A stretch of DNA of 64,000 nucleotides from a virus. Its lineage: Duplodnaviria > Caudoviricetes. Position numbers and translations under genes: made by a program. The notes below the pieces were generated by a model. That model made no database searches, had not been told where the DNA came from, and was given only the letters and a program-made list of their open reading frames with translations. The stretch spans positions 122,387 through 186,386 of IMG/VR virus record IMGVR_UViG_3300029288_000076. The stretch is one strand, 5' to 3'. Shown here in pieces: positions 3,397-47,161 of this stretch. Within the stretch, counting starts at the first letter, position 1. Each line of letters starts with the position of its first letter.

Positions 3397-4731
3397 TTAT
3401 AGTCCTCCCTTTCCTATTGCTTTGTATAAAAATCCTAACTCTGTTACTTTAACAGAATCAAAAACATTTCTTCCATCTACAATTATAAAAGTATTCATCA
3501 AACCTTTAATATCTTCAAGATCAATAGCTAGATATTCTTTATGCTTAGTAGCTACTACCAAGGCATCAGAATCTTTCAAAGCAGTTTTAATGTTATTTGT
3601 TAAATTAACACCATGAAATTCTTTTACATAAGGATCATGGACTATAACTTCCGAACCTAAAGATAATAATTGATGAACCAAATCATAAGTAGGACTATTT
3701 CTAATGTCATCTGAATTTTCAAGATAAGCAGCTCCCAGTATAGCTACTTTTATATTGGTAAAACGTTTCTCTTTAATTGTTAAGCATTCATATAGTAAAC
3801 TAATGATATGATGAGGCATAGAATTATTAATACTTCTTGCTAACTCTACGAATTGAGTATGAACAGTTTTCTTTCCATATAACTTAAGACCATATAGCAA
3901 TAACCAAGTATCTTTTGGAAGACAGTGGCCACCAACTCCAGTTCCTGGCAAATGCATCATTCTCTCAGATCTAGTATTTATAAGCTCTTGTACTTCATAC
4001 ACATTAATTCCAAGACTTTCACAAATTAAAGCCATTTCATTTGCAAAAGCTATATTAACGTCCCTATAAGCATTTTCAATAGTTTTTGTAGCTTCAGCTG
4101 TTTTTATATTTGTAGTATAAATTGGAGCCTTTATTATTGATGAATATAGCTTCTTAGCTCTATATTCACTTTCTTTATCAAACCCACCTACTATTCTTGG
4201 AAGTTCTTTTATAGATTGTAATAGCTTTCCGGGCATTAGTCTTTCAAATGAATAAGCCAATAAAAAATCTTTTCCTGCTTTTAAACCTGTTTGCTCTATA
4301 ATTGGTATTATTATGTTTTCAGTAGTTCCTGGAGCAAGAGTAGATTCTATAATTATAAGCGCTCCTGACTTCATCTTCCAACTCATTTCATGAATTGCTT
4401 CTTTAAGATCAATATAATCTGGTTCATTATATTGATTTACTGGAGTTTGAACGCAAATTATAATAATATCTCTGTCACTTAATCTTGAATAATCATCAGT
4501 AGCATAAAAAGACTTTTTATCCACAACTCTTTTAATTAATTCTGCTAATTCAGGCTCATCACCATTTATAGTAGATTCACCAGCATTAAGTGTTTTTATC
4601 TTCCATTCACTATTCTTTGCTCCTTTCTCTAAACCTACAACATGATTGTCTTCAACATCAGCTAATAATGCTGCGCACGGGAGACCAACATATCCCATTC
4701 CTATTACTGCTATTTTTACTTGATTGTTCAT
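3397..4731 (-). CDS. UDP-N-acetylhexosamine 6-dehydrogenase (WecC/WbpA family nucleotide-sugar dehydrogenase)
   Basis: GMGYVG Rossmann motif, CVQTP, IESTLAPGTT, ENAYRDVNIAFANE, catalytic GGHCLPKD, DGRN. Confidence 0.92.
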   Translation of the reverse strand: MNNQVKIAVIGMGYVGLPCAALLADVEDNHVVGLEKGAKNSEWKIKTLNAGESTINGDEPELAELIKRVVDKKSFYATDDYSRLSDRDIIIICVQTPVNQYNEPDYIDLKEAIHEMSWKMKSGALIIIESTLAPGTTENIIIPIIEQTGLKAGKDFLLAYSFERLMPGKLLQSIKELPRIVGGFDKESEYRAKKLYSSIIKAPIYTTNIKTAEATKTIENAYRDVNIAFANEMALICESLGINVYEVQELINTRSERMMHLPGTGVGGHCLPKDTWLLLYGLKLYGKKTVHTQFVELARSINNSMPHHIISLLYECLTIKEKRFTNIKVAILGAAYLENSDDIRNSPTYDLVHQLLSLGSEVIVHDPYVKEFHGVNLTNNIKTALKDSDALVVATKHKEYLAIDLEDIKGLMNTFIIVDGRNVFDSVKVTELGFLYKAIGKGGL

Positions 4732-9682: not shown

Positions 9683-10732
9683 TTACAAAAACTTGTTTAA
9701 AACTTCCATTATTCTTTCTACAGCATGACCGTCCCATAATTTATTAATTTTATAATATAAAATGTTCAAATTTAAGAATTTATTAACTAAATCATTTATG
9801 GTTTTTTGATCTTCAGTTACAAAATTATTCCCATGCAAAGTAGTAACTTTATGCGGTGTATGATAATTATATGTAATACAAGGTTTATGTAAAATATAAG
9901 ATTCACATTGAACTCCACCACTATCTGTAATAACAAAAGAAGCATTACATAATTTATTAATGAATTCTGAATAACTCATTGGCTCAACTAACTCTATGTT
10001 TTTTGATAAATATCGTTTATCAAACATAAAGACTTCTTTTATTCTAGGGTGAGCAGATAGTATAACAGGAATCTTATCTGCTACATTATTTAAGATTTCC
10101 AAAATACTTCTAAAACCATTATCAACATTTTCTACACGGTGAAAAGTAGCTAAACAATACTGCTTGCTATTAAAATCAATCCACTTTGTATGGTGTAATC
10201 TTATTGAATCAGCTAAAACGTTACCTACAAGATGTCCATTTGCTAAGGTCTCACTCTTCAAATTTATCATTCCAGATTCTTCAGTTACAAAATTATATGT
10301 TGACATATGATCAATAAGTTTTCTGTTTATCTCTTCTGGAAAGTCAAATCTTCCAACTCTTAAGCCTGCTTCTACGTGAGCGATGGGAAAGTCTTTTTTC
10401 TGAGCAAACAAAGTTCCAGCCAAAGAAGAATTCATATCACCAAATACTACAAACAAATCAGTAAAGCTTTCTAGAGAAAGGTTTTCAAAATATAACTTTT
10501 CTAGTTCAATAAGAATTGAACCTGTTTGGTGAGCATGACCTTTTCCTGAACGCTCTAATCTATAATCAGGTTGGAAACCAAATTCATCAAAGAATACTTG
10601 GCTCATAGAATTTGAATAGTGTTGTTCTGTAAAGATAATTTTATAGTTAGTAAAATTAATCTTTTTAAAATACTCTATAAACGGATAGAGTTTTACAATA
10701 TTAGGTCTACCACCAATACAAAAAACAATCAT
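9683..10732 (-). CDS. UDP-N-acetylglucosamine 2-epimerase family (WecB/WbpI-like)
   Basis: GGRPN, QHY, GDMNS, HVEAGLR, PEEINR, HRVEN, TDSGGVQ. Confidence 0.92.
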   Translation of the reverse strand: MIVFCIGGRPNIVKLYPFIEYFKKINFTNYKIIFTEQHYSNSMSQVFFDEFGFQPDYRLERSGKGHAHQTGSILIELEKLYFENLSLESFTDLFVVFGDMNSSLAGTLFAQKKDFPIAHVEAGLRVGRFDFPEEINRKLIDHMSTYNFVTEESGMINLKSETLANGHLVGNVLADSIRLHHTKWIDFNSKQYCLATFHRVENVDNGFRSILEILNNVADKIPVILSAHPRIKEVFMFDKRYLSKNIELVEPMSYSEFINKLCNASFVITDSGGVQCESYILHKPCITYNYHTPHKVTTLHGNNFVTEDQKTINDLVNKFLNLNILYYKINKLWDGHAVERIMEVLNKFL

Positions 10733-11068: not shown

Positions 11069-11376
11069 TCCATCTTCTCCTTCAGCTTCTCAACAAAAAC
11101 ATAAACATCTTTTATAAAATCAGCATGGTCTTCTAAGCTTTTATTTTTCTTTCTTCCAAATTCATTATACTCTTCAATAAAACCTTCACACAACTTTAAA
11201 ATACTTATAGCTTTATTTAAATGAAAATATTGAGCAGAAACTTTTTTAAGTTTTTCTTTCTCTTCATCAGCATAATCATTCAAACCTCTCGCTTGAGGAG
11301 GCATCATTGTTATAAGTTCTTCTTGATGTTTTGCTTCTTTAGAAAATTCTTCAAGATAAGCTATTGTTTTGTTCAT
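11065..11376 (-). CDS. Hypothetical protein
   Basis: Overlapping start/stop coupling on both sides. Confidence 0.5.
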   Translation of the reverse strand: MNKTIAYLEEFSKEAKHQEELITMMPPQARGLNDYADEEKEKLKKVSAQYFHLNKAISILKLCEGFIEEYNEFGRKKNKSLEDHADFIKDVYVFVEKLKEKME

Positions 11377-12149
11377 CTAAATCTTCCTTTAAAATAATAA
11401 CGAAGTTTGCAAACAAGATTACAATGATCCATGTTTTGACACATCACTAAACTTGGTTCATGCCAAAGATGAGCGCCATAAATATTATCTGGATAGATTG
11501 CTTTAATCCCATAGTTTGCCATATTATAATGAAGCATAATGTCACACCAAGGACGTTTAATATCATCTAACAACTCCATATCCTTCTTTCTAATGGCACC
11601 AAGAAAAAAGTAATTTTGAATCGCTACTTTTCCAGATCTTATAGTTGGGGGATTAATTTGCCAATCTTCATTAACTAATTTTAGCCATCCATAAAAATTA
11701 TTTACATTGTTAGCTTTTTCAGTTAATTCTTTATTCACATTTGCTACAGTACAAAAAGAAGCTTGGTCAGGCAAACAATTATCAACCAAAGTTTGTAGAA
11801 TATTATCGCTCATATAAACAACATCAGCAGACTGCATCACTATAATATCAGTATCTTCAGGAACAAAATCAACTATAAAGCTCATCATTGTATCAAAACT
11901 ATAATGTTGATCAAGTCTTTTATATTTCACATTATGAAAATAGCTTTTAATAATTGACTCAGGATCTATAGTAGAATTATCATCTACTATACAAAGCTGG
12001 TATTCAAAATCAGTTTTCTGCTTTGTTAAAGAATAGAGTACATATGGGAGCAACTTCTCTTTATTGTAAGTTGGCATATAAATTGAAACTTTCATTATTC
12101 TAAACCATTTATTTATTTTTGTTCTAAACAAGCTCCACAATGAGGACAA
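11373..12149 (-). CDS. GT2-like (GT-A) glycosyltransferase, paralogue 1 of 6
   Basis: PTYNK, CIVDDNS, QSADV, WCD, HLWH, C-x5-C-x3-C. Confidence 0.8.
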   Translation of the reverse strand: MSSLWSLFRTKINKWFRIMKVSIYMPTYNKEKLLPYVLYSLTKQKTDFEYQLCIVDDNSTIDPESIIKSYFHNVKYKRLDQHYSFDTMMSFIVDFVPEDTDIIVMQSADVVYMSDNILQTLVDNCLPDQASFCTVANVNKELTEKANNVNNFYGWLKLVNEDWQINPPTIRSGKVAIQNYFFLGAIRKKDMELLDDIKRPWCDIMLHYNMANYGIKAIYPDNIYGAHLWHEPSLVMCQNMDHCNLVCKLRYYFKGRFR

Positions 12150-12640
12150 GTATAATATGGTTCATACTTATATCTATAAGCCATTCTGGAAGATAAGCTT
12201 TTAGCCATAAACATTGTCCAGTCTAATTTTTCTTTATGTAGATATTTGTTCCTCTTTATTATTTCCCAAGAATCATTGTAATAAGGATTACAATCTTTTT
12301 TAAGTTTATATGCTCCAGCATAATCAGGAATATCTTCTTTATTGATATTAACATTAGGAGAAAATATATAACAAAAATAATTTGGAACTAATGCAGAAGA
12401 AATTTCTTTAAACCAATTTTTATCTTGTGATACCAACTTATATACTTGATGTTTAGAGATTTTTTTAAAATCATTTTTGAAATCAGCTAAACTTGTTTTA
12501 ATTTCATATTCATATGCAAATCCAGACCAAGTAACTAATAGAATATCTGCTTCACCGCTAGGTAGCCAAATATTAGGAGCAATTAAGCCAATATTAGCTT
12601 TCCATCTCATTATTGCTTTTTTCATTTCCCATTCATTCAT
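12113..12640 (-). CDS. MmcB-like PD-(D/E)xK nuclease
   Basis: EADIL...EYEIKTSLADFKNDFKK. Confidence 0.65.
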   Translation of the reverse strand: MNEWEMKKAIMRWKANIGLIAPNIWLPSGEADILLVTWSGFAYEYEIKTSLADFKNDFKKISKHQVYKLVSQDKNWFKEISSALVPNYFCYIFSPNVNINKEDIPDYAGAYKLKKDCNPYYNDSWEIIKRNKYLHKEKLDWTMFMAKSLSSRMAYRYKYEPYYTCPHCGACLEQK

Positions 12641-13008
12641 TTAATTTTTTCTCGTCCAAATCTTTTAGATTCATTTTCTATAGCTTGCAAAATAACTTCT
12701 TCTTGATGTCTTATAGACGTTAATTGCCGCTCGTAGCTTTTTCTTACATTTAAGCAATCAATACAATAATAAGGAGCTCTATAGTCGCCACCCCAAGTAT
12801 CAGCCTCTAATTCCCATTCCCCTCCAAAACAATTGCCACAAACTTCTCTTTTACAACCATCAAAATTTGCTCCCCATCCACCAGCTTGACCACACTCCCA
12901 TAAGTTTTTAGCTTCTTCTCCGCATCTATCGCAATAATATTTTGTTATTAATTCCTCATGTTCTAGAATTAATTCGTCCGGAACTATTTTAGAAATTACC
13001 TTCTTCAT
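12637..13008 (-). CDS. Cys-rich hypothetical protein
   Basis: CDRC, CGNC, CIDC. Confidence 0.5.
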   Translation of the reverse strand: MKKVISKIVPDELILEHEELITKYYCDRCGEEAKNLWECGQAGGWGANFDGCKREVCGNCFGGEWELEADTWGGDYRAPYYCIDCLNVRKSYERQLTSIRHQEEVILQAIENESKRFGREKIK

Positions 13009-13802
13009 TTTACTTTCCTCAATATCTTTGAGTCAGAAACCCAAGTATTCCAAACAGGGTTTTCTTCTTTTAAATAAATTCCATCTTCTTTCCATGATTT
13101 AACATATTTAACCAATAATATAAAATGTCTTTTATTATTATTCTGTTTAGTATATTCAACTCTCCAAACTGCTCCTTCACATTCTTCCAAAGCTCCTTCT
13201 CTACCTTCTTTAGGATAAAAATTAAATTCTTCAACAGAATAACCTGTTTCACCTCTATAAAGTAAATAAGGAATGTTAAATCTACTATTACCAAGAGCAT
13301 GATTCTTGTTAATAATTTCTTCAAAAGTTATTCTTTCATTTTCAGAATTAAAATAATCAAAAATGAAAAATGGTTCTTTCTTAAAATTGTATTTTGTTCC
13401 ATGAGCTTGAATACACCACTCACCTATTACTCTATCGCCAGGGTTAAGCAATTCTAGAAATCTATCTTTCTGTTCAAAAACCCATTCATGAAATATCTGG
13501 TGCATCTTAAAAGGTGATGTATTTGCTACATATCCAGCTCTAGTTAATGGTACAACAGTATCTTCATATCTAAGAATGCCTACGTTTGAACCATCAATTT
13601 TTTCAGTAACTAAAACTATACGCTTTGGTAATTTATCATTCTCAATAGCCATCTTCTCATGACCTGGAGAAGCTTTACTGTCAGATGGACCAAGTCTTGA
13701 TCCGCTAAGATGTGGAATTGATCCATAATTCTTAATACCAAGTGGTTTTCTTTCAAATATGTTCATTTTTCTATATAGCCTTTTCCTTTGCATCTCAAAC
13801 AT
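13005..13802 (-). CDS. ATP-dependent RNA ligase (Rnl2-like nucleotidyltransferase domain)
   Basis: TEKIDGSN (motif I), GEW, FD, EGAVWR, VKYV. Confidence 0.8.
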   Translation of the reverse strand: MFEMQRKRLYRKMNIFERKPLGIKNYGSIPHLSGSRLGPSDSKASPGHEKMAIENDKLPKRIVLVTEKIDGSNVGILRYEDTVVPLTRAGYVANTSPFKMHQIFHEWVFEQKDRFLELLNPGDRVIGEWCIQAHGTKYNFKKEPFFIFDYFNSENERITFEEIINKNHALGNSRFNIPYLLYRGETGYSVEEFNFYPKEGREGALEECEGAVWRVEYTKQNNNKRHFILLVKYVKSWKEDGIYLKEENPVWNTWVSDSKILRKVK

Positions 13803-13917
13803 TGTTTGTTATTATATATTGGACATATTAGACCAAATGGCATTGGAACATATACTATATCTTCTATAGACTTTTTCCCATTACAAGTAAAGCAGACTTT
13901 TTTAGATTTTTCTTTAA

Positions 13918-14679
13918 TCACTTCCAATTTTGTTTCCATATATCTAATTTCCTTACACAGTGAGATTTACAATTTTTCAAAACATTACAACCATAAGGAA
14001 TTTTCAAATGTCTTTGATGAATACCTTTTAAATCTGACATCAAATTAACTTCGTAATTCAACTCTTTCATTTTTTCTTTTATTATCACATCACAAGCATT
14101 CATTGTAAAGCCAAGCTCAATAAAATCGTGTATTGTCATAGCACCAAGAAAGAAATAAGGATCTTGTCCAGACCTCCCAGAATAAACTGTTTTTTGCTTA
14201 TTAAACACCACATTACCAAATAATATATCGATTTCAGTATCAAATTGTTCCCAGTTATCTAAAATATCTTTTGTATTATTATCAAAGTCTGTATAAAAAT
14301 CATCTTCAATAGGAATATCAACAACTTCAGCAATAGAAGGCTTTGAATCAAACGTATTATAAGCAAGATCAGAAACTATATTATCAGTTACATAAATAAC
14401 ATCACAAGCAGATAGAATTATAATATCAATATCATCAGAAGCTAATCCAAAACATTTACCATGTGAAAACTGAGTTCCAACTCTTTTATCAAGTCTCTTA
14501 TATTTTACGGGAAAATTAGTTATAAGCTCATCAATAATAGGTTTAGGATCAATATCAGAATAATCATCTATAATACATATTTCAATAGGAAAATCAACTT
14601 TCTGTCTGCTGATAGAATATAGAGTATTTGCAAATTGATTATTTTTATTGTACGTAGCTAAAAAAATTGCTGCTTTCAC
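13918..14679 (-). CDS. GT2-like glycosyltransferase, paralogue 2
   Basis: ATYNK, CIIDDYS, SACDV, ACD, HQRH, C-x5-C-x3-C. Confidence 0.8.
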   Translation of the reverse strand: MKAAIFLATYNKNNQFANTLYSISRQKVDFPIEICIIDDYSDIDPKPIIDELITNFPVKYKRLDKRVGTQFSHGKCFGLASDDIDIIILSACDVIYVTDNIVSDLAYNTFDSKPSIAEVVDIPIEDDFYTDFDNNTKDILDNWEQFDTEIDILFGNVVFNKQKTVYSGRSGQDPYFFLGAMTIHDFIELGFTMNACDVIIKEKMKELNYEVNLMSDLKGIHQRHLKIPYGCNVLKNCKSHCVRKLDIWKQNWK

Positions 14680-14867
14680 TTTATATATGTTTTACCTAAC
14701 AAATAACCAACACCATTACAAAGCGGACATGGCACTGGCCAACCATGACCACCTGGTTGAAATCTTCCTAGTCCAAAGCACATATGGCATGATTCTTTAT
14801 TAATAATCTCAATTTCTACAGTAGTAAACTCTGTCTTTTTTATCTTATTATTTTCAAATTCCATCAT
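14676..14867 (-). CDS. Small DnaJ-type Zn-finger protein
   Basis: CHMCFGLG...CPLCNGVG. Confidence 0.55.
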   Translation of the reverse strand: MMEFENNKIKKTEFTTVEIEIINKESCHMCFGLGRFQPGGHGWPVPCPLCNGVGYLLGKTYIK

Positions 14868-14938
14868 AGTACCTCACAGAAAAAGAAGAACAGCATGGCA
14901 AAATCAACTTCTACCTATTATCTTATTTAAATCTTTCT

Positions 14939-15712
14939 TCATTTCAACTTCCTAATACAATGATAACTACAAGACTCAATATCTGGACAATCATAAACTT
15001 TTTTAAGATGGCGCTGATGAATAGCTTTTACCTCTGGAACTAAAATTGCCTGAAGCCCTTGCTCTTTCATTTTGTGTTTAACAACTGCATCACAACTATT
15101 TTCTATAAATCCTATATCTATTAAATCTTTTTTCTTTATAGCTCCACAAAACAAAAGCCAACTTGTCCAATTTTTGCCAGTATAAATAGTCCATTGCCTT
15201 TCATATACTCTTTTGTCTATAGGAAGCTCAAGTTGATGAATATGACTTTCCCAATCATCTAAAATCCATTTAACATTCTCATCATAACTTTTATAAAAAT
15301 CTTCATCTATAGGTATGTCAACTACTTCAGCTAATGTAAATTTTTTATCTTCAACTTTCTCAACAAGCTTTTGCAAATCATCTGATCTAGTTAAAATTAT
15401 ATCAGCTCCAATCAGAACAATAATATCTGACTCTTCAGCTATCAAATCCATTCCAATACCTTGAGTTTTATTAAATGCTGAATGCTTATCAAGTCTTTTA
15501 TATTTATAAGTAACTTCTTCATTAATACAAAACTCTTTAATAATTTTATAAGGATCAGTATCAGAATGATCGTCAACAAAACAAACTTCATACTCAAAAT
15601 CAGTTTCTTGCTTACCCAAGCCAAACAAATAGTTTCTTAGTTGGTCTTCTTTATTCCATATTGCAGTTAAAATAGAAACTTTCAAGATTTTTTCTCCATC
15701 TCTTCCTTCCAA
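14939..15712 (-). CDS. GT2-like glycosyltransferase, paralogue 3
   Basis: AIWNK, CFVDDHS, GADI, SCD, HQRH, C-x5-C-x3-C. Confidence 0.8.
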   Translation of the reverse strand: MEGRDGEKILKVSILTAIWNKEDQLRNYLFGLGKQETDFEYEVCFVDDHSDTDPYKIIKEFCINEEVTYKYKRLDKHSAFNKTQGIGMDLIAEESDIIVLIGADIILTRSDDLQKLVEKVEDKKFTLAEVVDIPIDEDFYKSYDENVKWILDDWESHIHQLELPIDKRVYERQWTIYTGKNWTSWLLFCGAIKKKDLIDIGFIENSCDAVVKHKMKEQGLQAILVPEVKAIHQRHLKKVYDCPDIESCSYHCIRKLK

Positions 15713-16701
15713 ATATCTAAAAGCTTAAAAACAATTATCGCTATTTTTCTATTATCTTCAATCCATTTTTTGCCATATTTCTTACTTGCATCAGAAAAAA
15801 GTTTAAGATACTCTTCAGGTATTTCTATTTTAGAAATTGGTTTTTCTTCAACGATCGGTTTCTTTACTTCTATTATAGGTACTGTTCTCCAAAAAGACTT
15901 TTTTGGTTTATTAGGGTCTATTTTTTCCAAGTGCTTCAGCCAAAATTCATCTTTCCGTATACAGTGATAAGGACAAGTATCAATAATCTTACATTCATAC
16001 ATTGTTTTAGGATGCCTTTGATGAATAACCTTACAGTCATTTAATAGTATAGCTTTGAAATTTTTTTCTTTCATCAATTGATGCAGCGTAGCATCGCAAG
16101 CGTTATGCTCAATTCTTATGCTTCTAAGATCATCAGCTAAAATACCTCCGCAGAAAAATAACCACGAGTGATAAGGAGCGCCAGTATAAAATGTAGAACT
16201 GTTTTTACATAGCAATCCATTTGTTAACACAACATCAACATATACTTTATAATTATCCCAATTATTTATATATTTTTCTATATTAGAATCAAAATTTAAA
16301 TACATATTATCATCAATAGGAATATCAATAACTTCTGTCATCGTTATTTGTTTAGAATCAGTATTGTCTACTATTCTTTGCAAAATATGATCTTCAGTAT
16401 AAATAACATCAGATGATTGTAAAACAACAATATCTGTATTTTTATCCATCACATCAAAACAATGCCCATGAGAAAGCGTCACACCTTCATTTTTTGGTAA
16501 TCTTTTATATCTTGCGTGAGGAAAGAATTTTCTTATTATTGGCTCTGGATTAACATTAGAGTGATCATCAATAATACAAACATCAAAATCAAAATTCGTT
16601 TTTTGCCTGGCAAGAGAATATAGAGCATTTGGAAGTTGATTATTCTTATTCCAAGTAGCCATAAACACAGATACTTTAGATTTCATCTTTCTCCTTTTCA
16701 A
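15682..16701 (-). CDS. GT2-like glycosyltransferase, paralogue 4 (C-terminal extension)
   Basis: ATWNK, CIIDDHS, QSSDV, ACD, HQRH, C-x5-C-x3-C. Confidence 0.8.
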   Translation of the reverse strand: MKRRKMKSKVSVFMATWNKNNQLPNALYSLARQKTNFDFDVCIIDDHSNVNPEPIIRKFFPHARYKRLPKNEGVTLSHGHCFDVMDKNTDIVVLQSSDVIYTEDHILQRIVDNTDSKQITMTEVIDIPIDDNMYLNFDSNIEKYINNWDNYKVYVDVVLTNGLLCKNSSTFYTGAPYHSWLFFCGGILADDLRSIRIEHNACDATLHQLMKEKNFKAILLNDCKVIHQRHPKTMYECKIIDTCPYHCIRKDEFWLKHLEKIDPNKPKKSFWRTVPIIEVKKPIVEEKPISKIEIPEEYLKLFSDASKKYGKKWIEDNRKIAIIVFKLLDIWKEEMEKKS

Positions 16702-17491
16702 AATGTCTCTTTAATTTACAATCAACTTCACAAGTCTCTAATTGAGAGCATTTAATCCAAGTATCAGAATGTGGTTGATGGATAGCAATAGGAGTATCTA
16801 TAAATAATGGATTAAATCCTTGTTCTACTAAAGCTAAATGAAATAAAACATCGCACATAGGTTTTCCTATTAAAACTTTTTCAAGATCTGTTCTCATTAT
16901 AGCCATTAAAAAAGGATACATTGGTCTTTCTTGATTAGATCTAATTACTGGTTTTTCTTCTTCTAAAACATCATAAAAATGATTAACATAAAAATTAAAA
17001 AGTTGTTCATAATCATCATTAATAAAATTTAGTAAAGTATTGGCATTATATGTATTTACTAAAACAGGTTGTCCTTTATTAACATAAGTACTCATCATAT
17101 CTAAAAGAGTATCACTTGACCATATAGTATCTGCTGATTGAATAATAACTATTTCACTATCAACAGAAATAAGACTGAACATACTGTTCCAATAAATTAC
17201 ATCAAATCCTTGTTTTTCTGTGTATCTATAATATTTAACATCTGGAACATATTTCCTTATTATAGACTCTGGATCTATATCTGAACAATCATCAGCAACA
17301 CAAATTTCATAATCAACATCACTTAATTGTCTAGTTATAGAATAAAGTGTTCCTGGTAAAACTGCTTGTTTGTTATAAGTACAAAAGAATATTGACGCTT
17401 TCTTTATAGGAACCTTTCTTTTTTCAAAATCATTTACTTCTATAATTTTATATGGTAAAAGTTCTTTTTTATTGTAGTATGATAAATACAT
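16676..17491 (-). CDS. GT2-like glycosyltransferase, paralogue 5
   Basis: CTYNK, CVADDCS, QSADT, MCD, HQPH, C-x5-C-x3-C. Confidence 0.8.
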   Translation of the reverse strand: MYLSYYNKKELLPYKIIEVNDFEKRKVPIKKASIFFCTYNKQAVLPGTLYSITRQLSDVDYEICVADDCSDIDPESIIRKYVPDVKYYRYTEKQGFDVIYWNSMFSLISVDSEIVIIQSADTIWSSDTLLDMMSTYVNKGQPVLVNTYNANTLLNFINDDYEQLFNFYVNHFYDVLEEEKPVIRSNQERPMYPFLMAIMRTDLEKVLIGKPMCDVLFHLALVEQGFNPLFIDTPIAIHQPHSDTWIKCSQLETCEVDCKLKRHFEKEKDEI

Positions 17492-17493
17492 TT

Positions 17494-18288
17494 TTAATTA
17501 ATCCATTTTTCTTGTTTTTTGACGCAGTCAAATTTGCACTTTTCAACCTCAGAACATATATGTATTCCTTTATTGTGACGCTGGTGAATAGCTTTAACTC
17601 CTGGATAAACAGCGTCCCACCCTTCAGTAACTCTAACTTTTCTAGTCTTTTGATCTAAAATAGCATCACACCAATGATTTTGGACTCCTGTAAAAAGCAA
17701 ATCTTTCTTCATTATTGCTCCAAGATAAAAAAGCCAGCTGTCTCTTTCTTTACCAGAAAAAAGATTCCAGCAACCAGAAATAACCTTACTATTATATTCA
17801 CTCTTCAAAGTTACAGACCAATAATAATTTTTGTAGTCATTCCAATGACAAATAATATCATTAAGATTAATTTCAAATTCTTTCCAAAAATCTGGGAAAA
17901 TTGGTGTATTTATAACGTCTGCAAAAGAGAACTTTTTATTATCTACTCCTTCACAAAGAATGTTGATTGTATTTTCATCTGCCCATATAACATCTGAACA
18001 AGTCAAGATTACAACATTAGACTTAATAGATGATAATCTAAAAGCAGCAGGAACAGCTTGAAAAACACCTAGTTTCTCTTCTGATCTTCCAAATTTATAT
18101 TCAAAATTAGTTAAAAACTTCTTAACAATAGGTTCAGCGCTTTCGTCTGAACAATCATCCCAAATACAAAACTCAACGGGAATATCTGTCTTTTGTCTGT
18201 TCATAGAATATAGTGTATTTTCTAGAGCCCATAATCTATTATGGACCGCAAAAACAACGCTTACTTTTTCAATATTTTTTGTATTCAT
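17494..18288 (-). CDS. GT2-like glycosyltransferase, paralogue 6
   Basis: AVHNR, CIWDDCS, CSDV, WCD, HQRH, C-x5-C-x3-C. Confidence 0.8.
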   Translation of the reverse strand: MNTKNIEKVSVVFAVHNRLWALENTLYSMNRQKTDIPVEFCIWDDCSDESAEPIVKKFLTNFEYKFGRSEEKLGVFQAVPAAFRLSSIKSNVVILTCSDVIWADENTINILCEGVDNKKFSFADVINTPIFPDFWKEFEINLNDIICHWNDYKNYYWSVTLKSEYNSKVISGCWNLFSGKERDSWLFYLGAIMKKDLLFTGVQNHWCDAILDQKTRKVRVTEGWDAVYPGVKAIHQRHNKGIHICSEVEKCKFDCVKKQEKWIN

Positions 18289-19229
18289 TAAATTTTAACC
18301 ATCCTATATACTCCGCCAGAGCCACAAAGCTTTCTTTCATCTTTGTATTGACACCACGGAAAACCTTGGTCATCAAAAGTTACTGCTTCTAAAAAATCTG
18401 TATGCTCTTTTTCAAGTAAGTTATATTTATCAGAAATATATTTAGAATCAAAAAAATCTTTTAGATCTAATTTGCTTGGATATCCACCTATAAAATCTAT
18501 TTTAGCTATAGACAATTTGATAAAATCTTCAGGCTTATAAGCAATTGAAACGGGACAATCCTCCCCATCTGTAGATTTTGAAAATACATAATCAGTATTA
18601 TCTAATGCACTATACTTATCAGAATTTGGATAACCGCTTTCTTTACTAGAAAGAATCCTTAAAACAAAAGCCACATAAAAATGAAAGAAAATACTGTCTC
18701 TATTATACACCATTAAATTAGCATGACAATCTTCTTTTAAATAATCATATAAATAGTTAAGTATTTCTACTGGTTTATTTACATGGTGCAAAACTCCCCC
18801 GCAGTGAACATGATCAAATTCTCCAGAAAAGTCACCAATATTAGAATTTTGATTTGTATTAAGAATTAATGCTACTTTATCTTCATAGCCATATAACTTT
18901 ACTCTTTCATTAGTAATATCTAAAGCTTTTTTAGAAACATCACAACCAACTACAAAGTCAGCGCCAGCTTTTAAGAATTCAATTACGTCATGTCCTGGAC
19001 CGCAACCATAATCAAGAATTTTCTTCCCTGCATAATCTACATTCTCAAGTTCTAGCATTTTCATAGCCATTGGATATTGAGCACTTCTCCAAGCTAAATA
19101 ATCATCCGATTCCTTTATTGACGTAAAATACTTATCATAAATAAGATGCTTATTCCAGTATTCATCAACTTGGGTCATGTGTAACCTCCAAAACCAAAAT
19201 CTCTCTTCCCGGAACAGTAAACCTATCAA
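18288..19229 (-). CDS. Class I SAM-dependent methyltransferase (start probably MTQVDEYW)
   Basis: ILDYGCGPG, GCDVS, FDHVHCGGVLHH. Confidence 0.88.
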   Translation of the reverse strand: MIGLLFREERFWFWRLHMTQVDEYWNKHLIYDKYFTSIKESDDYLAWRSAQYPMAMKMLELENVDYAGKKILDYGCGPGHDVIEFLKAGADFVVGCDVSKKALDITNERVKLYGYEDKVALILNTNQNSNIGDFSGEFDHVHCGGVLHHVNKPVEILNYLYDYLKEDCHANLMVYNRDSIFFHFYVAFVLRILSSKESGYPNSDKYSALDNTDYVFSKSTDGEDCPVSIAYKPEDFIKLSIAKIDFIGGYPSKLDLKDFFDSKYISDKYNLLEKEHTDFLEAVTFDDQGFPWCQYKDERKLCGSGGVYRMVKI

Positions 19230-19806
19230 TCTCTACCATACCAAGTCTCAAGAGCATTTTTGTCATTTTAATATTTCTTATATCCATTGATCCCCAAGTA
19301 GCAAAATAGCCTAACTTTTTATGTTCATCAATAACCATTTGAATACAAGTTTTTACCATTTCTCTTCCTTCTGGGGTCCCTTGATATTCAGGAATCATGG
19401 TTATAAAACCAAGATGAGCTCTAGGATCTCTAGCTTTCCTAGTTTTCTTATCCATAGTGTTAAAAAATAATTGCATTAAGGCATTGAGAACATAACGCAA
19501 ATGAAATACCCCGGCAAGCATGCGCTTTATCCAGATCCATGGTATTCTAAATCTATATTTTCTATTAAAACATTCATAGAGCAAAGCTTTATTAAAATAG
19601 CCAACAGCATAGCAAATTATCTTACCATGCTTTTCTGCATAAAAACCAAAAGCTAATCCTGAAGAAACAAGATAGTTATAAAATAAAGTAAGATATTCTT
19701 CGCCCAAAAGTTTAGTAAATTCATAATCATAGAATGTATCTAAATGAATTTGAACTAATTTTCTAGCAAACAAATAACTATTAAAGAATGGTCTGTAAAA
19801 AATCAC
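19165..19806 (-). CDS. GNAT-family acetyltransferase
   Basis: ITMIPEYQGTPEG motif A-like, N....LL.RLGM motif B-like. Confidence 0.6.
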   Translation of the reverse strand: MIFYRPFFNSYLFARKLVQIHLDTFYDYEFTKLLGEEYLTLFYNYLVSSGLAFGFYAEKHGKIICYAVGYFNKALLYECFNRKYRFRIPWIWIKRMLAGVFHLRYVLNALMQLFFNTMDKKTRKARDPRAHLGFITMIPEYQGTPEGREMVKTCIQMVIDEHKKLGYFATWGSMDIRNIKMTKMLLRLGMVEIDRFTVPGREILVLEVTHDPS

Positions 19807-20398
19807 TGAATGTCCTCATAAAAGTAATATAATATTCCATATGACCTACATCGTTTAAATGTACTCCATCTTGTAGTAAAAGATTTTGAACAATTTTGTT
19901 TTTAGTGAGCCAATCTTTTTCATGATCTACTAAAATTACTCTATGATTATAATTGCTTCCAGATATAAAATCCTCAACCACATTTCGTATAACACCATTA
20001 TATACATGACATTGTGGGTAGATAGTGTTTTTTATAGCTGGATGATTTGTAGCAACAAAAACAACTTTAATATCAAAATTAAAAGCTCTTTCTATAATTT
20101 CATATAGATTATACCTAAAAGAATTAAGAGAAACCCTTGATAATCCTTTATCTGTTTCCCATCTATTACAATCATTCAAGCCATATTGAACATATAAGTA
20201 ATCTGCTTTTGCTTCTTGTACGTCATGCGGCATGCGCTCAAGAGCCTGCCTTGTAGTCTCACCATTCCTTGCAGAAATCTCAATAGAATAATCTTCTTCT
20301 AATTCTTTAGCTACAAGATATATCCACTTATTTGATAATGATATATGTTGTCCATCGACAGTAGAATCTCCCCAAAATAGAAACTTCTTTTTAATCAT
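19781..20398 (-). CDS. SGNH/GDSL hydrolase (O-acetylesterase or acetyltransferase)
   Basis: GDST, GETT, GLND, DGVH blocks. Confidence 0.88.
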   Translation of the reverse strand: MIKKKFLFWGDSTVDGQHISLSNKWIYLVAKELEEDYSIEISARNGETTRQALERMPHDVQEAKADYLYVQYGLNDCNRWETDKGLSRVSLNSFRYNLYEIIERAFNFDIKVVFVATNHPAIKNTIYPQCHVYNGVIRNVVEDFISGSNYNHRVILVDHEKDWLTKNKIVQNLLLQDGVHLNDVGHMEYYITFMRTFSDFLQTIL

Positions 20399-20765: not shown

Positions 20766-21599
20766 TTAGATACGATTAAGTAAATTTTGTTTTTTAAAAG
20801 CAAAACATAAAACGCCTAATACATTTCCATTGTTTGGAAATAGAAAATAAGATCCTTTCTTCCAAGCATTTTTATCCCAATTTATATATCCTGGAAGTTC
20901 GTTCACATAACCATAAATCAATTCAGATCCTAAAAACATTTCTTGTATATGCCTAACATTTATATTTGTAATATTCTTAGCTCTATCACCATATCCTAAT
21001 TCCCCATTCATTAGATAATCTATAGTAAAAATAATTATACCTCCAGGAGCCACTAAGTCCCAGCATGCTTTTAAGTGTTTTTCATATTTATCAACACCAT
21101 AGCAAATTGGTATATGTTCTAAAACAGATATATTAAAAACTACATCAAAAAATTCTTTTTGTAATGGTAATTCTTCTACCAAACCGACCACCATTTTTGC
21201 TTCATAATCTTTTAATATTGACATAAAAGATGTCCATTCAGCTTCTAGATTATTTCTTAAAGCCCAAATAAGAATATCAGTAAGATGTTCATAATCAGAA
21301 GAAAAGACTTTATGGATTGTTAAATCTGTTTGCTCCATTAATAAAGCTGAAACAAAAAGCATATCAGAACCAATATCTAAAACTTTCTTTCCTTTTAATC
21401 CTCCATGAAAATTAGAAGCAATATTTAATACAGTTGGATACTCTTTCAATCTTGTAGTGCAGGAACAAAAAAATATCATTTCTTCTTTTTGATATTGTGT
21501 AAGTTCTAACCATTCTTCAAGTTTAAGTTCGTTAGACATCCAGTCAAAAGCTTTAATATAGTATCTAATATCTTCTTGAGAAGGATTCTTTAAAATCAT
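20766..21599 (-). CDS. Class I SAM-dependent methyltransferase
   Basis: VLDIGS, FDVVFNISVLEH, LVAPGG. Confidence 0.82.
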   Translation of the reverse strand: MILKNPSQEDIRYYIKAFDWMSNELKLEEWLELTQYQKEEMIFFCSCTTRLKEYPTVLNIASNFHGGLKGKKVLDIGSDMLFVSALLMEQTDLTIHKVFSSDYEHLTDILIWALRNNLEAEWTSFMSILKDYEAKMVVGLVEELPLQKEFFDVVFNISVLEHIPICYGVDKYEKHLKACWDLVAPGGIIIFTIDYLMNGELGYGDRAKNITNINVRHIQEMFLGSELIYGYVNELPGYINWDKNAWKKGSYFLFPNNGNVLGVLCFAFKKQNLLNRI

Positions 21600-22525
21600 T
21601 TCAAATTTTTAAGATGCGTATAAGTTTCTGTTACTGGATTATTTTTGTACCAATCAGTTGCCCTATCAATTCCACTTTGTAATGGTGTGAAACCTAGCAC
21701 TGGTTGTCCAAATTCTTTGATAGTTAAATCATTCTCTAAAATCAAATAAGGTATATCGTCGTCACCACGTTCTTTAAAAATAGGGTCTTTTTCTATATTC
21801 AAACTCTTGCACATCGCATTATACAAATCAACAATCTTATATGATCTTCCTGACGATACATGGTAAGCTCCATGTCCATTACTTTTAAGTATTGCCTGGA
21901 GCAAATAAAAAAGCAAATCATTTATATAAACAAAATCTCTTTCAACTCCAGTTACTACTGTGCAATCTTCTCCTTCAGTTAATCTCTTGAAAAATGTGGG
22001 CACAGGACCTGATAAATTACGTTCGCCGTAGCAGTTAGCTAATCGAAAAGAAACATAATCAATTCCAGACATTGCTATATATCTTTCAGCTGCTGTTTTT
22101 GAAATAGAATAGCTATTAGTTGGGGCTATTTTATGTACAACTGGAATTGGAACTATCTCTGGCCATCCATAGCAAAGTGATGTTTGCATATAGATAATTC
22201 TTTTCACTTTATTATTTTTAGCTGCTTTAATAATATTAACTGTCCCAAGTACATTTGTAGCACTATCGCGATACCAATCTTCAGGATCTTTATATGACGC
22301 TGCACAATGTACTACAACTTCTGGTTTAACGAGTTCAAAAAGTTCATTAACCCTGCCAATATTCTCTATTGTATCTGCAACAAAGTATTCCATTCTAGCA
22401 TCAATGTTTTTAGCTTTACCTGTTGACAAATTATCTATTCCATATACTTGATGTCCCCTATCAATAAGTTTGTTTGCTAAATGAGAACCAATAAATCCAG
22501 CAACCCCAGTTATTATGACATTCAA
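21596..22525 (-). CDS. NAD-dependent nucleotide-sugar epimerase/reductase (extended SDR), Bordetella WbmG/WbmH-like
   Basis: TGVAGFIG, AASYKDPEDW, QTSLCYG, YSISK, FRLAN, C-terminal YTHLK as recalled for WbmG/H. Confidence 0.85.
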   Translation of the reverse strand: MNVIITGVAGFIGSHLANKLIDRGHQVYGIDNLSTGKAKNIDARMEYFVADTIENIGRVNELFELVKPEVVVHCAASYKDPEDWYRDSATNVLGTVNIIKAAKNNKVKRIIYMQTSLCYGWPEIVPIPVVHKIAPTNSYSISKTAAERYIAMSGIDYVSFRLANCYGERNLSGPVPTFFKRLTEGEDCTVVTGVERDFVYINDLLFYLLQAILKSNGHGAYHVSSGRSYKIVDLYNAMCKSLNIEKDPIFKERGDDDIPYLILENDLTIKEFGQPVLGFTPLQSGIDRATDWYKNNPVTETYTHLKNLK

Positions 22526-23169
22526 TTAGTTTCCTCCCTATCTTTTTTCTTTCTAGTTTCTTTTTTATTATGATAACTAAAATGTTCTCCAACAGTCATC
22601 ATTTGCAAATTTGTCAAATCATTATTTTTACTATTCCCATCTTTATGATGAATAACGCAACCTTTTGGTATTTCTCCATAAGCTTCTCCCCAAACTAAAC
22701 GATGCATTAACCTTCTTTTATCTCCTTCATTGTAAATTGATATATAATTGCCACTATCAAGTACTTCACCTTTCCACCTTGAATTTTTCTCCCTTATAGT
22801 ACTTTCTCTCATTTTCCTCTTTGCTTCTTCGGAAAGATGTTTTCCTGTTTGGGCTTCGCTCATCCGCTTTCTAGTTTCTAAAGAGAGATTTTCTATTTTA
22901 TGACATTCACTTCTACGCTTCTTTGTCTCTTCGGAAAGATTTTCTGTTTTATTAATAAAACTTATTTGTTGCCTTGTTTCTTTAGAATGATGTTTACCTT
23001 TCATGCCAAAATTATGATTATTTTTAGCATTCCACTTAGAAACACAAGAGTGACAACAAAATAATGACTCTTTCTTCTTCTTTTTTCCACACTTATATTT
23101 ATTTAGAATTTCTTTTCCGCACTGTTTACAACACTCTTTATTGTCATCCATTCTATAACATTTCTCCAT
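22522..23169 (-). CDS. Free-standing HNH homing endonuclease with NUMOD3 repeats
   Basis: GKHHSKETR repeats; HRLVW...IHHKDGNSKNNDLTNL. Confidence 0.88.
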   Translation of the reverse strand: MEKCYRMDDNKECCKQCGKEILNKYKCGKKKKKESLFCCHSCVSKWNAKNNHNFGMKGKHHSKETRQQISFINKTENLSEETKKRRSECHKIENLSLETRKRMSEAQTGKHLSEEAKRKMRESTIREKNSRWKGEVLDSGNYISIYNEGDKRRLMHRLVWGEAYGEIPKGCVIHHKDGNSKNNDLTNLQMMTVGEHFSYHNKKETRKKKDREETN

Positions 23170-24406
23170 CTATAAAGTTTCTAAAAAATAATTCCAAGCT
23201 CAAAGCACCCAAAATTGTCCTACCATATTCTGATTCCAATGATGCTGCTATTAATATTTCATCACAATTAAAGATACCACGTTCTCGCGTTCTTTGATCA
23301 TTAAATAAATCGCTAACAAATTCATTTGCAATACCATCTCCTTGTATCCATTTCACAAAAGGAGTTGTAAAGCCCATCTTGTTTGTTCTATTTAAGACTT
23401 TCTCAGGCAAATACTTTTCTCCTGCTTTCTTAAGAATATATTTTAATTCTTGATTCTTAAATTTAATCTCAATTGGGACTTCTTTAGCAAACTCAACAAT
23501 AGCCCTACTTAGCAAAGGTGCATAAGTTTCTATACCAAAAGCTCTTGGGAGCTTTTCATCAATAGCTAATAACGTTGGTAGATCATATTGAATTTCTCCA
23601 ACCATTACTTGCTCAAGAGTTTTTGTTTCCATACAAGGATAAAATATATTCATTGGAAAACGATCTTTAGCATATATACTAGGGACTTTGCATCTAAGAA
23701 TAGAATTATTATATTGTAATAAATCCAAATATCTTGTATAACCTAACCAAAGTTCGTCTCCCCCTTCACCTGTTAGAAGTATGTCTACCCATTTCGAAGC
23801 TTCTTTGTAGACAATATATTGGCTAAAAGATCCTGGACCACCGCAAGGTTCTTCTAACCAATAAATAACGTCTTGTATATTATCTACAAAATCTTGTTCA
23901 TCAATAATTACAGGATGCAAAATAAGATTTGGATATTTATTTGTTACTGCTTTAATATAAGGCCATTCATTGTAACCTTCATAAAGAAACAATCCTGAGA
24001 AAACATTAAAGTCGCAATCAGGATTTTGAGTTGCTGCTACACCAGTTACAAAAGAACTATCTATTCCGCCAGAAAGAGAAAAGCCTATTTCATCAGCGCT
24101 TTTATAAGAAAGAGATTCTTTAATAGAGTTCTCTACAAGATACGTTAGTGTTTTTATTGCTCTATCTTCTGTAAGATTATCATAATTAAAATAGAAATTA
24201 GCTAATTGAGAAGGTCTTTCTCTAAAAATACCTTTAAATAATGTTTCAGAAGAAGTATAGTATTGATATGTAATGTACTCTTGAAGAGCTTGTTCGTTTA
24301 GCTCTATTTTAGGTTTGCCATTTTCATCTTGGGGTAAATATTTAAAAAGATCAACTATCCTATCTGAATAGTGTCTAACACCGTAACCATTAATATAGTA
24401 TTGCAA
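23153..24406 (-). CDS. Asparagine-synthetase-like amide ligase (synthetase domain only)
   Basis: SLSGGIDSS PP-loop, LTGEGGDELWLGY, KMGF; no N-terminal Cys glutaminase domain. Confidence 0.85.
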   Translation of the reverse strand: MQYYINGYGVRHYSDRIVDLFKYLPQDENGKPKIELNEQALQEYITYQYYTSSETLFKGIFRERPSQLANFYFNYDNLTEDRAIKTLTYLVENSIKESLSYKSADEIGFSLSGGIDSSFVTGVAATQNPDCDFNVFSGLFLYEGYNEWPYIKAVTNKYPNLILHPVIIDEQDFVDNIQDVIYWLEEPCGGPGSFSQYIVYKEASKWVDILLTGEGGDELWLGYTRYLDLLQYNNSILRCKVPSIYAKDRFPMNIFYPCMETKTLEQVMVGEIQYDLPTLLAIDEKLPRAFGIETYAPLLSRAIVEFAKEVPIEIKFKNQELKYILKKAGEKYLPEKVLNRTNKMGFTTPFVKWIQGDGIANEFVSDLFNDQRTRERGIFNCDEILIAASLESEYGRTILGALSLELFFRNFIDGEML

Positions 24407-25189: not shown

Positions 25190-25250
25190 GGAACTACATC
25201 CTTATAAAGTATTATAGTTTTCTTGCACAGGATCCGTAGGTTCCTGTAAG
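25190..25250 (-). ncRNA. Candidate 3' part of the TnpB omegaRNA scaffold / element right end
   Basis: Hairpins ACAGGA...TCCTGT (25227-25247) and AACTATA...TGTAGTT (25192-25219) overlapping the tnpB 3' end. Confidence 0.45.
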
Positions 25251-28740: not shown

Positions 28741-29360
28741 TCTGTTTCCTCTATTACTTTTTTGCCATGATGAATTTTATTATGCTCTCCAGGAGTTACT
28801 AGTTGCAAATTTATTAATTCGTTATTTTTTCTATTGCCATCTATATGATGAATATGGTAACCCTCTGGTATCAAACCATTAGCTTCTTCCCATATATAAC
28901 GATGCAATGATTTTCTTTTATCACCTTTAACATATATTGAAGTATATGTGCTTGTATCAATAATTTCACCCTTCCACATATAATTTTTTTCTCTCTTAAG
29001 AGATTCGCTTATTTTATGTTTTTGCTCTTCTGGCAAATGCCTACCTTTTAATGTATTACTTATTTTTTTTCTACATTCCTCAGTAATACATCTGCCCTTT
29101 AACTTAACACTTAATAGTTTTCTAGTCTCATCTGAAAATATTCTTCCCTTTAATTTATCGCTTAACTTTCGCTTATGCTCTTCTGATAAGCTCTTTCCTT
29201 TAAATCCAACATTAGGATTGTTAATAATTTGCCATTTGCTAGAACAAGAAACGCTACAAAACTTTTTACTTTCTTTACTTTTAAACTTAATTACAATTTC
29301 ATTATTACACTGTAAACAATATTTTTTTATCTTATCATTTCTATCACAATATTTTATCAT
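28737..29360 (-). CDS. Free-standing HNH homing endonuclease with NUMOD3 repeats
   Basis: SEEHKRKLS repeats; HRYIW...IHHIDGNRKNN..NL. Confidence 0.88.
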   Translation of the reverse strand: MIKYCDRNDKIKKYCLQCNNEIVIKFKSKESKKFCSVSCSSKWQIINNPNVGFKGKSLSEEHKRKLSDKLKGRIFSDETRKLLSVKLKGRCITEECRKKISNTLKGRHLPEEQKHKISESLKREKNYMWKGEIIDTSTYTSIYVKGDKRKSLHRYIWEEANGLIPEGYHIHHIDGNRKNNELINLQLVTPGEHNKIHHGKKVIEETE

Positions 29361-46610: not shown

Positions 46611-46736
46611 ATTAAAAAATTATAATAATTGAAGTCGTAAAAAAGGTTTACATAAACAGCATACTTATATATAATATAAACAACCAGTGTAATCTAAAAA
46701 TGTTCGGTTTTAATATTGAAGAAAAGATTATAATAT

Positions 46737-47156: not shown

Positions 47157-47161
47157 GTTAA

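Follow-up and report, generated by a model that had tools for sequence, protein, structure and literature searches.

The locus considered here raises the question of what four cysteines, kept in each of six paralogous glycosyltransferases, do beside a predicted active site, and of what glycan and what acceptor such a set of phage enzymes would serve. The genes lie on the minus strand at positions 11373-18288 of the window, i.e. the whole 64,000-nucleotide stretch that was analysed, which forms the last 64 kb of the 186,386-bp IMG/VR virus record IMGVR_UViG_3300029288_000076 (Duplodnaviria; Caudoviricetes), a record that is ~90% complete. The answer favoured here, which is given about an even chance of being right in all its parts together, is that the six proteins would be GT-A enzymes of an uncharacterised clade in which a structural zinc clasps the lid of the active site, and that they would build an oligosaccharide whose likeliest acceptor is a virion protein.

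The six open reading frames (ORFs), named GT1 to GT6, encode mutually alignable family-2 glycosyltransferases of 253-339 residues; "Cys4-type" refers to the four-cysteine signature described in the next section, and "tail motif" to its C-terminal part:

11373..12149, minus strand: GT1, Cys4-type family-2 glycosyltransferase (PF00535 E 1.7e-13; 258 residues from a TTG; xxD 11823-11831, C-D 11541-11546, H-x2-H...C-x5-C-x3-C 11409-11471)
13918..14679, minus strand: GT2, Cys4-type, apparently an extra GT3-like copy (PF00535 E 2.2e-6; C-D 14089-14094; tail motif 13957-14019)
14939..15712, minus strand: GT3, Cys4-type family-2 glycosyltransferase (PF00535 E 6.5e-10; C-D 15089-15094; tail motif 14957-15019)
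15682..16701, minus strand: GT4, Cys4-type, apparently an extra GT3-like copy (PF00535 E 6.3e-11; C-D 16093-16098; tail motif 15961-16023)
16676..17491, minus strand: GT5, Cys4-type family-2 glycosyltransferase (PF00535 E 1.4e-12; C-D 16850-16855; tail motif 16718-16780)
17494..18288, minus strand: GT6, Cys4-type family-2 glycosyltransferase (PF00535 E 3.4e-7; C-D 17665-17670; tail motif 17524-17586)

All six proteins exceed the gathering score of Pfam PF00535 (Glycos_transf_2; 28-51 bits against a cut-off of 23.3), and in each the match is limited to the N-terminal 85-140 residues, the nucleotide-binding half. None has a transmembrane segment and most are acidic. The likely start of GT1 is the ATG at 12095, immediately behind an upstream stop, which would give a protein of 240 residues. 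A profile of the six paralogs run against the whole genome finds exactly these six copies; a seventh PF00535 match, at G000:C1:11952-12191 (-) (locus L014), lies within a 1000-residue ORF far from the cluster and has no match to the Cys4-clade profile. Three unrelated genes at 12113-13802, encoding a phrog_2776 protein, a Cys-rich ORF and an RNA ligase, stand between GT1 and GT2, and a promoter and terminator scan of the cluster gave no excess over shuffled controls. In the NCBI contig of GCA_024449895.1 the slot between the GT3-like and GT1-like genes, which is variable, holds an intein-interrupted ThyX gene where the window has the RNA ligase block.

The cysteine signature and its distribution

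The paralogs are strongly diverged, each of the others being 25-33% identical to GT1, with GT2, GT3 and GT4 39-44% identical among themselves. In every one of the six an H-x2-H is followed, six residues on, by C-x5-C-x3-C (CQNMDHCNLVC, CNVLKNCKSHC, CPDIESCSYHC, CKIIDTCPYHC, CSQLETCEVDC and CSEVEKCKFDC in GT1 to GT6), a conserved Asp is preceded directly by Cys (WCD, ACD, SCD, ACD, MCD, WCD), and the DxD position reads SAD, ACD, GAD, SSD, SAD and CSD. All the strings quoted in a first-pass annotation of this DNA, which had proposed six paralogous GT-A glycosyltransferases, were found in six alignable PF00535 ORFs; its statement that all six proteins end in the cysteine motif fails for GT4, which has the motif and continues for ~92 additional C-terminal residues that match no Pfam family. 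The six-way alignment has 20 invariant columns, five of which are cysteines (C53, C202, C237, C243 and C247; GT1 numbering), and a DDxS motif and the putative catalytic base D203 are invariant as well.

A word-indexed search recovered only 16 relatives, all metagenomic, and 88 clusters at E < 1e-30 came from a profile search run exhaustively over 1.84 billion representatives. With proteins of the phage's own genome removed, the comparison set consisted of 146 relatives: 86 with the C-terminal Cys triad and 60 full-length sequences without it. Cys directly precedes the conserved Asp (i.e. C202 is present) in 86/86 of the triad-bearing proteins and in 6/60 of the tail-less ones, and the triad without C202 was met in 0 sequences. 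In a 66-sequence clade alignment with a mean column identity of 22%, only eight columns are invariant: a Q, D109, C202, D203, H227, H230, C237 and C243. C247 is conserved at ≥90%, falling below invariance because the spacing to the last Cys ranges from x3 to x7, with all three cysteines retained. C53, within C-I-x-D-D, is left outside the signature since only 67/86 clade members keep it and since it is also present in the K4 chondroitin polymerase (K4CP) of E. coli. The tail-less relatives stop 3-10 residues past H-x2-H; the Cys tail is thus an add-on that lies outside the catalytic machinery.

On the strength of these alignments the conservation of the signature is far above chance expectation, and the signature itself is real, under selection, clade-defining and previously undescribed; that the cysteine set is selected and marks a subfamily had been surmised from the six paralogs, and both points stand in the larger set. 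Database and literature searches gave neither a specific name nor a solved structure for any clade member: sequence search of the PDB matched only the N-terminal half of the proteins, NCBIfam holds no equivalog for them, cluster names were absent or generic, and no literature match was found. Search by tblastn with GT4, GT1 and the GT-B enzyme described below against 50,697 GenBank phage records gave no match, and a scan for the clade motif in 185,579 species genomes found no relative, the pattern being narrow enough that absence in cells is not proven by it. Scans of IMG/VR found only four further contigs with clade members. The Cys4 clade is known so far only from phage-like contigs and is uncharacterised, and the pattern C-D ... 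H-x2-H ... C-x5-C-x3+-C serves as a sequence marker for about 90 diverged protein clusters on such contigs.

Each paralog resembles some protein of another phage more closely than it resembles any of the other five. The closest sequences elsewhere are P0007 for GT1 (64% identity), P0023 for GT3 (73%), P0005 for GT6 (71%) and P0045 for GT5 (43%). A related 95-kb viral contig (G001) carries orthologs of GT6, GT5, GT3 and GT1 in the same order at 63-66% identity (GT1 64%, GT3 66%, GT5 63%, GT6 65%); it has no ortholog of GT2, which is 43% identical to its GT3 ortholog. By these sequence comparisons four of the paralogs (GT6, GT5, GT3 and GT1) each appear to represent a conserved ortholog group, and GT2 and GT4 to be extra GT3-like copies. 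The copy number of Cys4 glycosyltransferases varies, this phage having six, G001 and the NCBI contig four each, and others one or two; natural fusions join a Cys4 glycosyltransferase to a sugar N-formyltransferase domain (P0063), a GT-B (group 1) domain (P0042) or a second family-2 domain (P0075). Affinity of each paralog to other phages' proteins, varying copy number and fusions together point to distinct, sequentially acting specificities, which fit better than an obligate hetero-oligomer. The hetero-oligomer, which the first-pass annotation had offered as one reading of the divergence, found no support, the related phage keeping four of the six genes, and it was rejected as the main explanation because of the varying number of paralogs. 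A complete 93.5-kb phage (L018, IMGVR_UViG_3300033144_007170) has a single Cys4 glycosyltransferase in a different sugar cluster, with a methyltransferase, a PfkB-like kinase, a Zn-dependent alcohol dehydrogenase, a split transketolase, a short-chain dehydrogenase/reductase (SDR) and a fusion of GT2 and GT9 family domains, a gene content suggestive of a phage pathway for a branched-chain or heptose-type sugar.

Fold and catalytic center

AlphaFold2 (AF2) models place the proteins in the GT-A fold, both for GT1 (18 sequences; predicted local distance difference test, pLDDT, 90.8) and for GT5 (66-sequence alignment; pLDDT 91.2, predicted template modeling score 0.90). In both models the Cys-bearing segment is a coil without regular structure but of high confidence (pLDDT 85-96; 92 for coil 241-260 of GT5), and a helix starts within ~1 residue of the last Cys. 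The closest solved folds are the N-terminal domain of K4CP (Z 20.1), TarS (17.8), TarP (17.7), SpsA (17.4), GalNAc-T1 (15.3; structural alignment over residues 15-258) and beta4GalT7 (13.3), with Foldseek matches down to E 5.5e-13. The nearest ESM-Atlas structural clusters carry Glyco_transf_7C (PF02709), and two of these clusters are 98-100% viral.

On this fold the residues that looked anomalous would find a conventional place. Three residues of beta4GalT1, Asp254, Met344 and His347, coordinate its catalytic Mn (PMC7565966); the long loop behind these ligands folds over as a lid, and its C-terminal end carries the acceptor site (PMC4202792). By position D109, H227 and H230 would correspond to that triad, D109 being the last Asp of the DxD position, which is degenerate (x-x-D) in the six paralogs and mostly x-D-D or x-D-E in the Cys-less relatives. 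D203 and the D...H-x2-H arrangement are kept in all 146 relatives, with H-x2-H 24-27 residues after D203, so that their presence in the 60 Cys-less proteins shows that neither H-x2-H nor the single Asp is special to the Cys4 clade. With a beta4GalT1-like triad the reduced DxD is no anomaly, and H-x2-H would be part of the catalytic metal site and not of the Cys site; the first-pass annotation's use of these two features as marks of an unusual subfamily does not survive the comparison. The enzymes would then be soluble, inverting glycosyltransferases of CAZy GT2 type with a GT-A fold, in which, by homology, the DDxS motif would bind the nucleotide, D109, H227 and H230 would hold a catalytic Mn2+ or Mg2+, and D203 would act as the catalytic base.

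The likeness to beta4GalT1 and ppGalNAcT (GT7 and GT27) would comprise the GT-A fold, a metal coordinated by one Asp of the DxD and by a pair of near-C-terminal ligands with a spacing of three residues, and a catalytic acid ~25 residues upstream of these C-terminal ligands. The differences are that Glu or Gly precedes the base in beta4GalT and ppGalNAcT where the Cys4 clade has C202, that M-x2-H of beta4GalT1 is replaced by H-x2-H, and that the lid, which is mobile in beta4GalT, has in the Cys4 clade three invariant cysteines and is probably fixed by a metal. The Cys4 enzymes are moreover cytoplasmic phage proteins of ~250 residues, without the stem or lectin domain of the beta4GalT and ppGalNAcT enzymes. 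K4CP (PDB 2Z86/2Z87), the best match among solved structures (rmsd, root-mean-square deviation, 2.5 Å over 202 residues), can be aligned by sequence over its N-terminal nucleotide-binding half (E 1e-16), the similarity ending before the acceptor half; unlike the Cys4 enzymes it is a two-domain polymerase with a full D-x-D and without the Cys4 signature. The GT-A enzymes of phages that glycosylate 5-hydroxymethylcytosine (5hmC) DNA, relatives of TarP and JGT (10.1101/2023.12.21.572611), resemble the present set in being phage-encoded GT-A proteins, but their R...DDD...EDY/F motifs are not present here, the Cys4 clade reading Q/x-S-A-D and C-D, and that study does not mention a Cys or zinc feature for the DNA enzymes.

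Role of the four cysteines

Since C202 directly precedes the predicted catalytic Asp, the placing of a cysteine beside the predicted base, another element of the earlier proposal, is supported. The favored arrangement is one in which C202 would pair with C237, C243 and C247 of the segment after H-x2-H, which occupies the lid position of beta4GalT and ppGalNAcT, and in which a structural Zn2+ would pin this C-terminal lid to the catalytic loop next to the base. Such a Cys4 metal would fix the acceptor pocket without taking part in the chemistry. A structural metal, probably zinc, is the most likely occupant of the site; both the metal and the clasp geometry are what we infer from conservation and fold. 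Isolated tails searched against Pfam at E up to 10 matched no metal-binding family, and the literature yielded no GT-A enzyme with a Cys4 zinc or Fe-S site of this kind. The GT-A fold is one of the most thoroughly studied in enzymology, and in no GT-A enzyme known to us does a second metal site, of Cys4 type, use a residue adjacent to the base to hold a lid loop. A complex prediction for a GT1 homodimer with two Zn returned a score of 0.00 with no contacts reported, and bears on neither oligomerisation nor Zn placement.

Evolutionary coupling between C202 and the tail is consistent with a common site: in a tree built without the signature columns the tail changes state four times, with C202 changing together with it in three cases and in the opposite sense in none. 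Several observations weigh against the clasp, however. There are only four independent tail transitions, for which a sign test gives p 0.25. A cysteine at position 201 or 202 occurs in 17/60 tail-less relatives, in the contexts C-F-D, C-Y-D and A-C-E-D, so that the coupling is absolute in one direction only and the cysteine may have a role of its own. Nor is PF02709 matched by sequence, either by the six proteins at E up to 1 or by ten Cys-less relatives at E up to 0.1, which keeps the analogy to beta4GalT at the level of fold.

The 17 tail-less sequences are also a ground for supposing that there is no single metal site at all, C202 being a thiol with its own function near the base and the tail cysteines a separate small knot or a set of disulfides; three cysteines with a His or a water can indeed bind a metal. 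This is judged improbable, since C202 stands exactly one residue before the Asp in 86/86 tail-bearing proteins while the tail-less cysteines are mostly shifted to C-x-D, and since disulfides are improbable in a cytoplasmic phage enzyme. Slightly less credible still is a [4Fe-4S] or [2Fe-2S] cluster in place of the zinc, which would make these redox- or oxygen-sensitive glycosyltransferases. A set of four invariant cysteines with no His among them, one remote and three in a C-x5-C-x3-C group, would suit a cluster, the spacing is unlike that of the usual CxxC zinc knuckles, and the tail matches no known Zn-finger Pfam model; but the sequence has no Fe-S-specific feature, structural Zn sites typically show such a variable third spacing (x3 to x7) and such a position near the terminus, the tail-less relatives indicate a site dispensable for catalysis, and no Fe-S GT-A enzyme was found in the literature. 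Should this outside chance nevertheless prove right, these would be the first Fe-S glycosyltransferases, with a cluster beside the base that would gate the lid by its redox state, and, were the acceptor glycosylated hydroxymethylcytosine (hmC) DNA, the cluster might instead make contact with the DNA, by analogy with repair enzymes of Fe-S type.

The glycan module and its acceptor

The clasp reading leaves the question of what is glycosylated, for which the genes around the cluster provide the main evidence. The following genes make up the rest of the module in the window:

3397..4731, minus strand: nucleotide-sugar 6-dehydrogenase (TIGR03026 E 1e-118; phrog_9148)
9683..10732, minus strand: WecB, non-hydrolysing UDP-GlcNAc 2-epimerase, forming UDP-ManNAc (PF02350 E 6e-69; TIGR00236 227 bits against a cut-off of 210)
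18288..19229, minus strand: S-adenosylmethionine (SAM)-dependent methyltransferase (Methyltransf_12/23/25; a methyltransferase is in the same module of other phages)
19165..19806, minus strand: basic protein of 213 residues, isoelectric point 9.5 (no Pfam, PHROG or NCBIfam match)
19781..20398, minus strand: SGNH/GDSL hydrolase-fold protein, candidate sugar O-acyl transferase or esterase (Lipase_GDSL_2 E 3e-15; recurs in the modules of other phages)
20766..21599, minus strand: second methyltransferase-like protein (Methyltransf_11 E 1.7e-7)
21596..22525, minus strand: NAD-dependent sugar epimerase/dehydratase of SDR type (PF01370 E 5e-41; in every module copy examined)
23153..24406, minus strand: AsnB-like adenylating amidotransferase domain without a glutaminase domain (PF00733 E 5e-53; aligns to AsnB model residues 173-517 only)

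For the dehydrogenase the UDP-ManNAc dehydrogenase models rank top, yet below their equivalog cut-offs. The AsnB-like gene, which like the SDR gene is in every module copy examined, probably encodes an enzyme that amidates a sugar carboxylate, and the module holds two or three methyltransferases. The combination of AsnB-like, SDR, methyltransferase, Cys4 glycosyltransferase and WecB genes, often with the SGNH gene, recurs on unrelated NCBI, ENA, JGI and Logan contigs; the GT1-type member is always within one or two genes of an epimerase and adjoins a UDP-GlcNAc 2-epimerase gene in at least seven contigs. The products of the module are therefore likely to be glycans that contain ManNAc or its uronic acid ManNAcA and that are amidated, methylated and acylated. 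The six glycosyltransferases, together with WecB, the ManNAc-type dehydrogenase, the SDR, AsnB-like and SGNH proteins and the methyltransferases, would build such a decorated ManNAc/ManNAcA oligosaccharide by successive additions of sugars, the donors and the order of action being what we infer from this gene content. No GT-D-like enzyme was found in the genome. Just past the module, at 25202-26281 (-), is a TnpB/Cas12f-like protein (TNB domain, E 1.8e-20), and HNH/NUMOD3 homing-endonuclease-like genes interrupt the gene clusters of the window at 22522-23169, 28737-29360 and 37066-37530.

A virion protein is the acceptor preferred here, if tentatively and at a little below an even chance. The argument comes from other phages, where the module stands beside capsid genes, which makes a virion protein likelier than hmC-DNA: in a 48-kb contig (L029) the whole module separates the major capsid gene from the tail-tube gene, in L028 it lies directly upstream of those for prohead protease and capsid, and a fusion of a Cys4 glycosyltransferase with a family-2 domain lies between the capsid and tail genes of a podovirus contig (L024). 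The GT-B enzymes of the L029 and L007 modules are of Gtf3_C type, their profile matching at 2e-9 to 1e-6 the solved Gtf3/GtfC enzymes of serine-rich-protein O-glycosylation. A full-length homolog of this GT-B, of 408 residues (E 5e-29 and 8e-21), is encoded in the present genome at G000:C1:40604-41830 (-), which is L030:8605-9831, ~5 kb downstream of an SU10-type major capsid gene (G000 46590-47723), and the glycan on the virion protein would be primed or extended by this Gtf3-like enzyme. The gene for a 469-residue radical SAM protein (G000:C1:43695-45104 (-), equal to L030:11696-13105) stands between those for the capsid protein and the Gtf3-like enzyme. Freeman et al. in 2023, a study cited in PMC11256854, reportedly described O-glycosylation of mycobacteriophage virions (Che8, Corndog, Myrna). 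The likeness to that system and to Gtf3/GtfC systems lies in the glycosyltransferase genes beside capsid genes in several of the module-bearing phages, and, for the Gtf3/GtfC of serine-rich-repeat adhesin glycosylation, in a GT-B of the same family that is near the capsid gene in this phage. The differences from the mycobacteriophage system are that other phage lineages are concerned, that the module here is much larger and has its own nucleotide-sugar synthesis, that it is known from genes alone, and that the six GT-A genes are far from the head genes.

That last feature belongs to the evidence that counts against a virion acceptor. The module sits, both here and in close relatives of this phage, among the SbcCD, UvsW and UvsX genes of recombination and replication, outside the head operon, and a search of the genome for Ser/Thr-rich acceptors found only spurious antisense ORFs and a weak enrichment in capsid and fibre proteins. 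The same genome, moreover, has a trio of dCMP-hydroxymethylase, kinase and GT-B genes, which makes DNA a live alternative acceptor:

33803-34810, minus strand: thymidylate-synthase homolog, predicted dCMP hydroxymethylase (best PDB match MilA CMP hydroxymethylase, 1.6e-29)
34795-35874, minus strand: GT-B glycosyltransferase (resembles viral clusters of T4 beta-glucosyltransferase type)
35874-36434, minus strand: Tmk-like kinase

Compared with E. coli ThyA the thymidylate-synthase homolog keeps C146 and D169 and has N177 changed to D, and the retention of D169 with N177D marks it, by the criteria of PMC13326640, as a hydroxymethylase of cytosine, as opposed to a 5-hydroxycytosine synthase. The order of the trio is that of DLP3 gp78-80, the core of 5-hydroxycytosine arabinosylation in DLP3 and RB69 (PMC13326640), but with a hydroxymethylase signature here. 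With hydroxymethylase, GT-B and kinase together, the phage very probably makes glycosyl-hmC DNA, as judged from these signatures, by a system that is probably separate from the glycan module. A dCMP deaminase gene follows the trio at 33352-33816, and ThyX is encoded elsewhere. Further along, at 37914-40571 (-), is a replicative polymerase of the bacterial Pol III alpha (DnaE/PHP) type, which beside T4-like gp32, UvsX, UvsW, RNase H and SbcCD homologs makes an unusual mix for a large phage.

If phage DNA were the acceptor, the GT-B of the trio would put the first sugar on 5hmC and the six GT-A enzymes would extend it to an oligosaccharide, with the Cys4 site unchanged. For this speak the hydroxymethylase with its cytosine-specific N177D, flanked by a T4 beta-glucosyltransferase-like GT-B and a Tmk-like kinase in the DLP3 order, the co-direction of the cluster with the surrounding replication and recombination genes, and the precedent of GT-A enzymes by which 5hmC glycans gain a second or third sugar (10.1101/2023.12.21.572611). 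DNA glycans are, however, known from mono- to trisaccharides (10.1101/2023.12.21.572611; PMC13326640), so that an adduct of six to seven sugars is without precedent; the cluster is 16 kb from the trio; the same module adjoins capsid genes in other phages, where its GT-B partner is a Gtf3-type enzyme of protein glycans; and the Cys4 proteins are acidic and lack the motifs published for the DNA enzymes. Nor is the link to a base-modifying enzyme consistent across the clade, since no thymidylate-synthase homolog (PF00303) was found in the four other viral records with a clade member, among them the complete 93.5-kb phage; a Tet_JBP search of the latter also found nothing but is uninformative, since its controls gave no signal. 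A DNA acceptor, which the first-pass annotation had put forward for screening, is possible but, on the gene context, less likely than a virion protein.

The module might, as a third target, remodel a polysaccharide of the host envelope during infection, such as the O-antigen, the capsule or a ManNAcA glycan like the enterobacterial common antigen (ECA). WecB and the ManNAc-type dehydrogenase do make UDP-ManNAcA, the precursor of ECA and O-antigen, and a PHROG search matches GtrB-like proteins of O-antigen conversion, at E 1e-8 and confined to the N-terminal half. But the module copies examined are without a priming phosphoglycosyltransferase, flippase, polymerase or ligase, the glycosyltransferases have no membrane segment, and an envelope target does not readily account for the presence of the module within the head operons of other phages; such a target is therefore held to be very doubtful.

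The virion protein thus keeps its tentative place as acceptor, and the presence in one genome of six Cys4 copies and a separate trio for hmC-DNA glycosylation makes the two targets distinguishable by experiment. If confirmed, the clasp would represent a new way to fix acceptor specificity, by means of a second, Cys4 metal site that ties down the lid loop of a GT-A enzyme. The Cys4 clade supplies the glycosyltransferase that recurs in a conserved phage module for glycan synthesis, and as such it offers a handle on glycosylation of the phage particle outside the mycobacteriophages.

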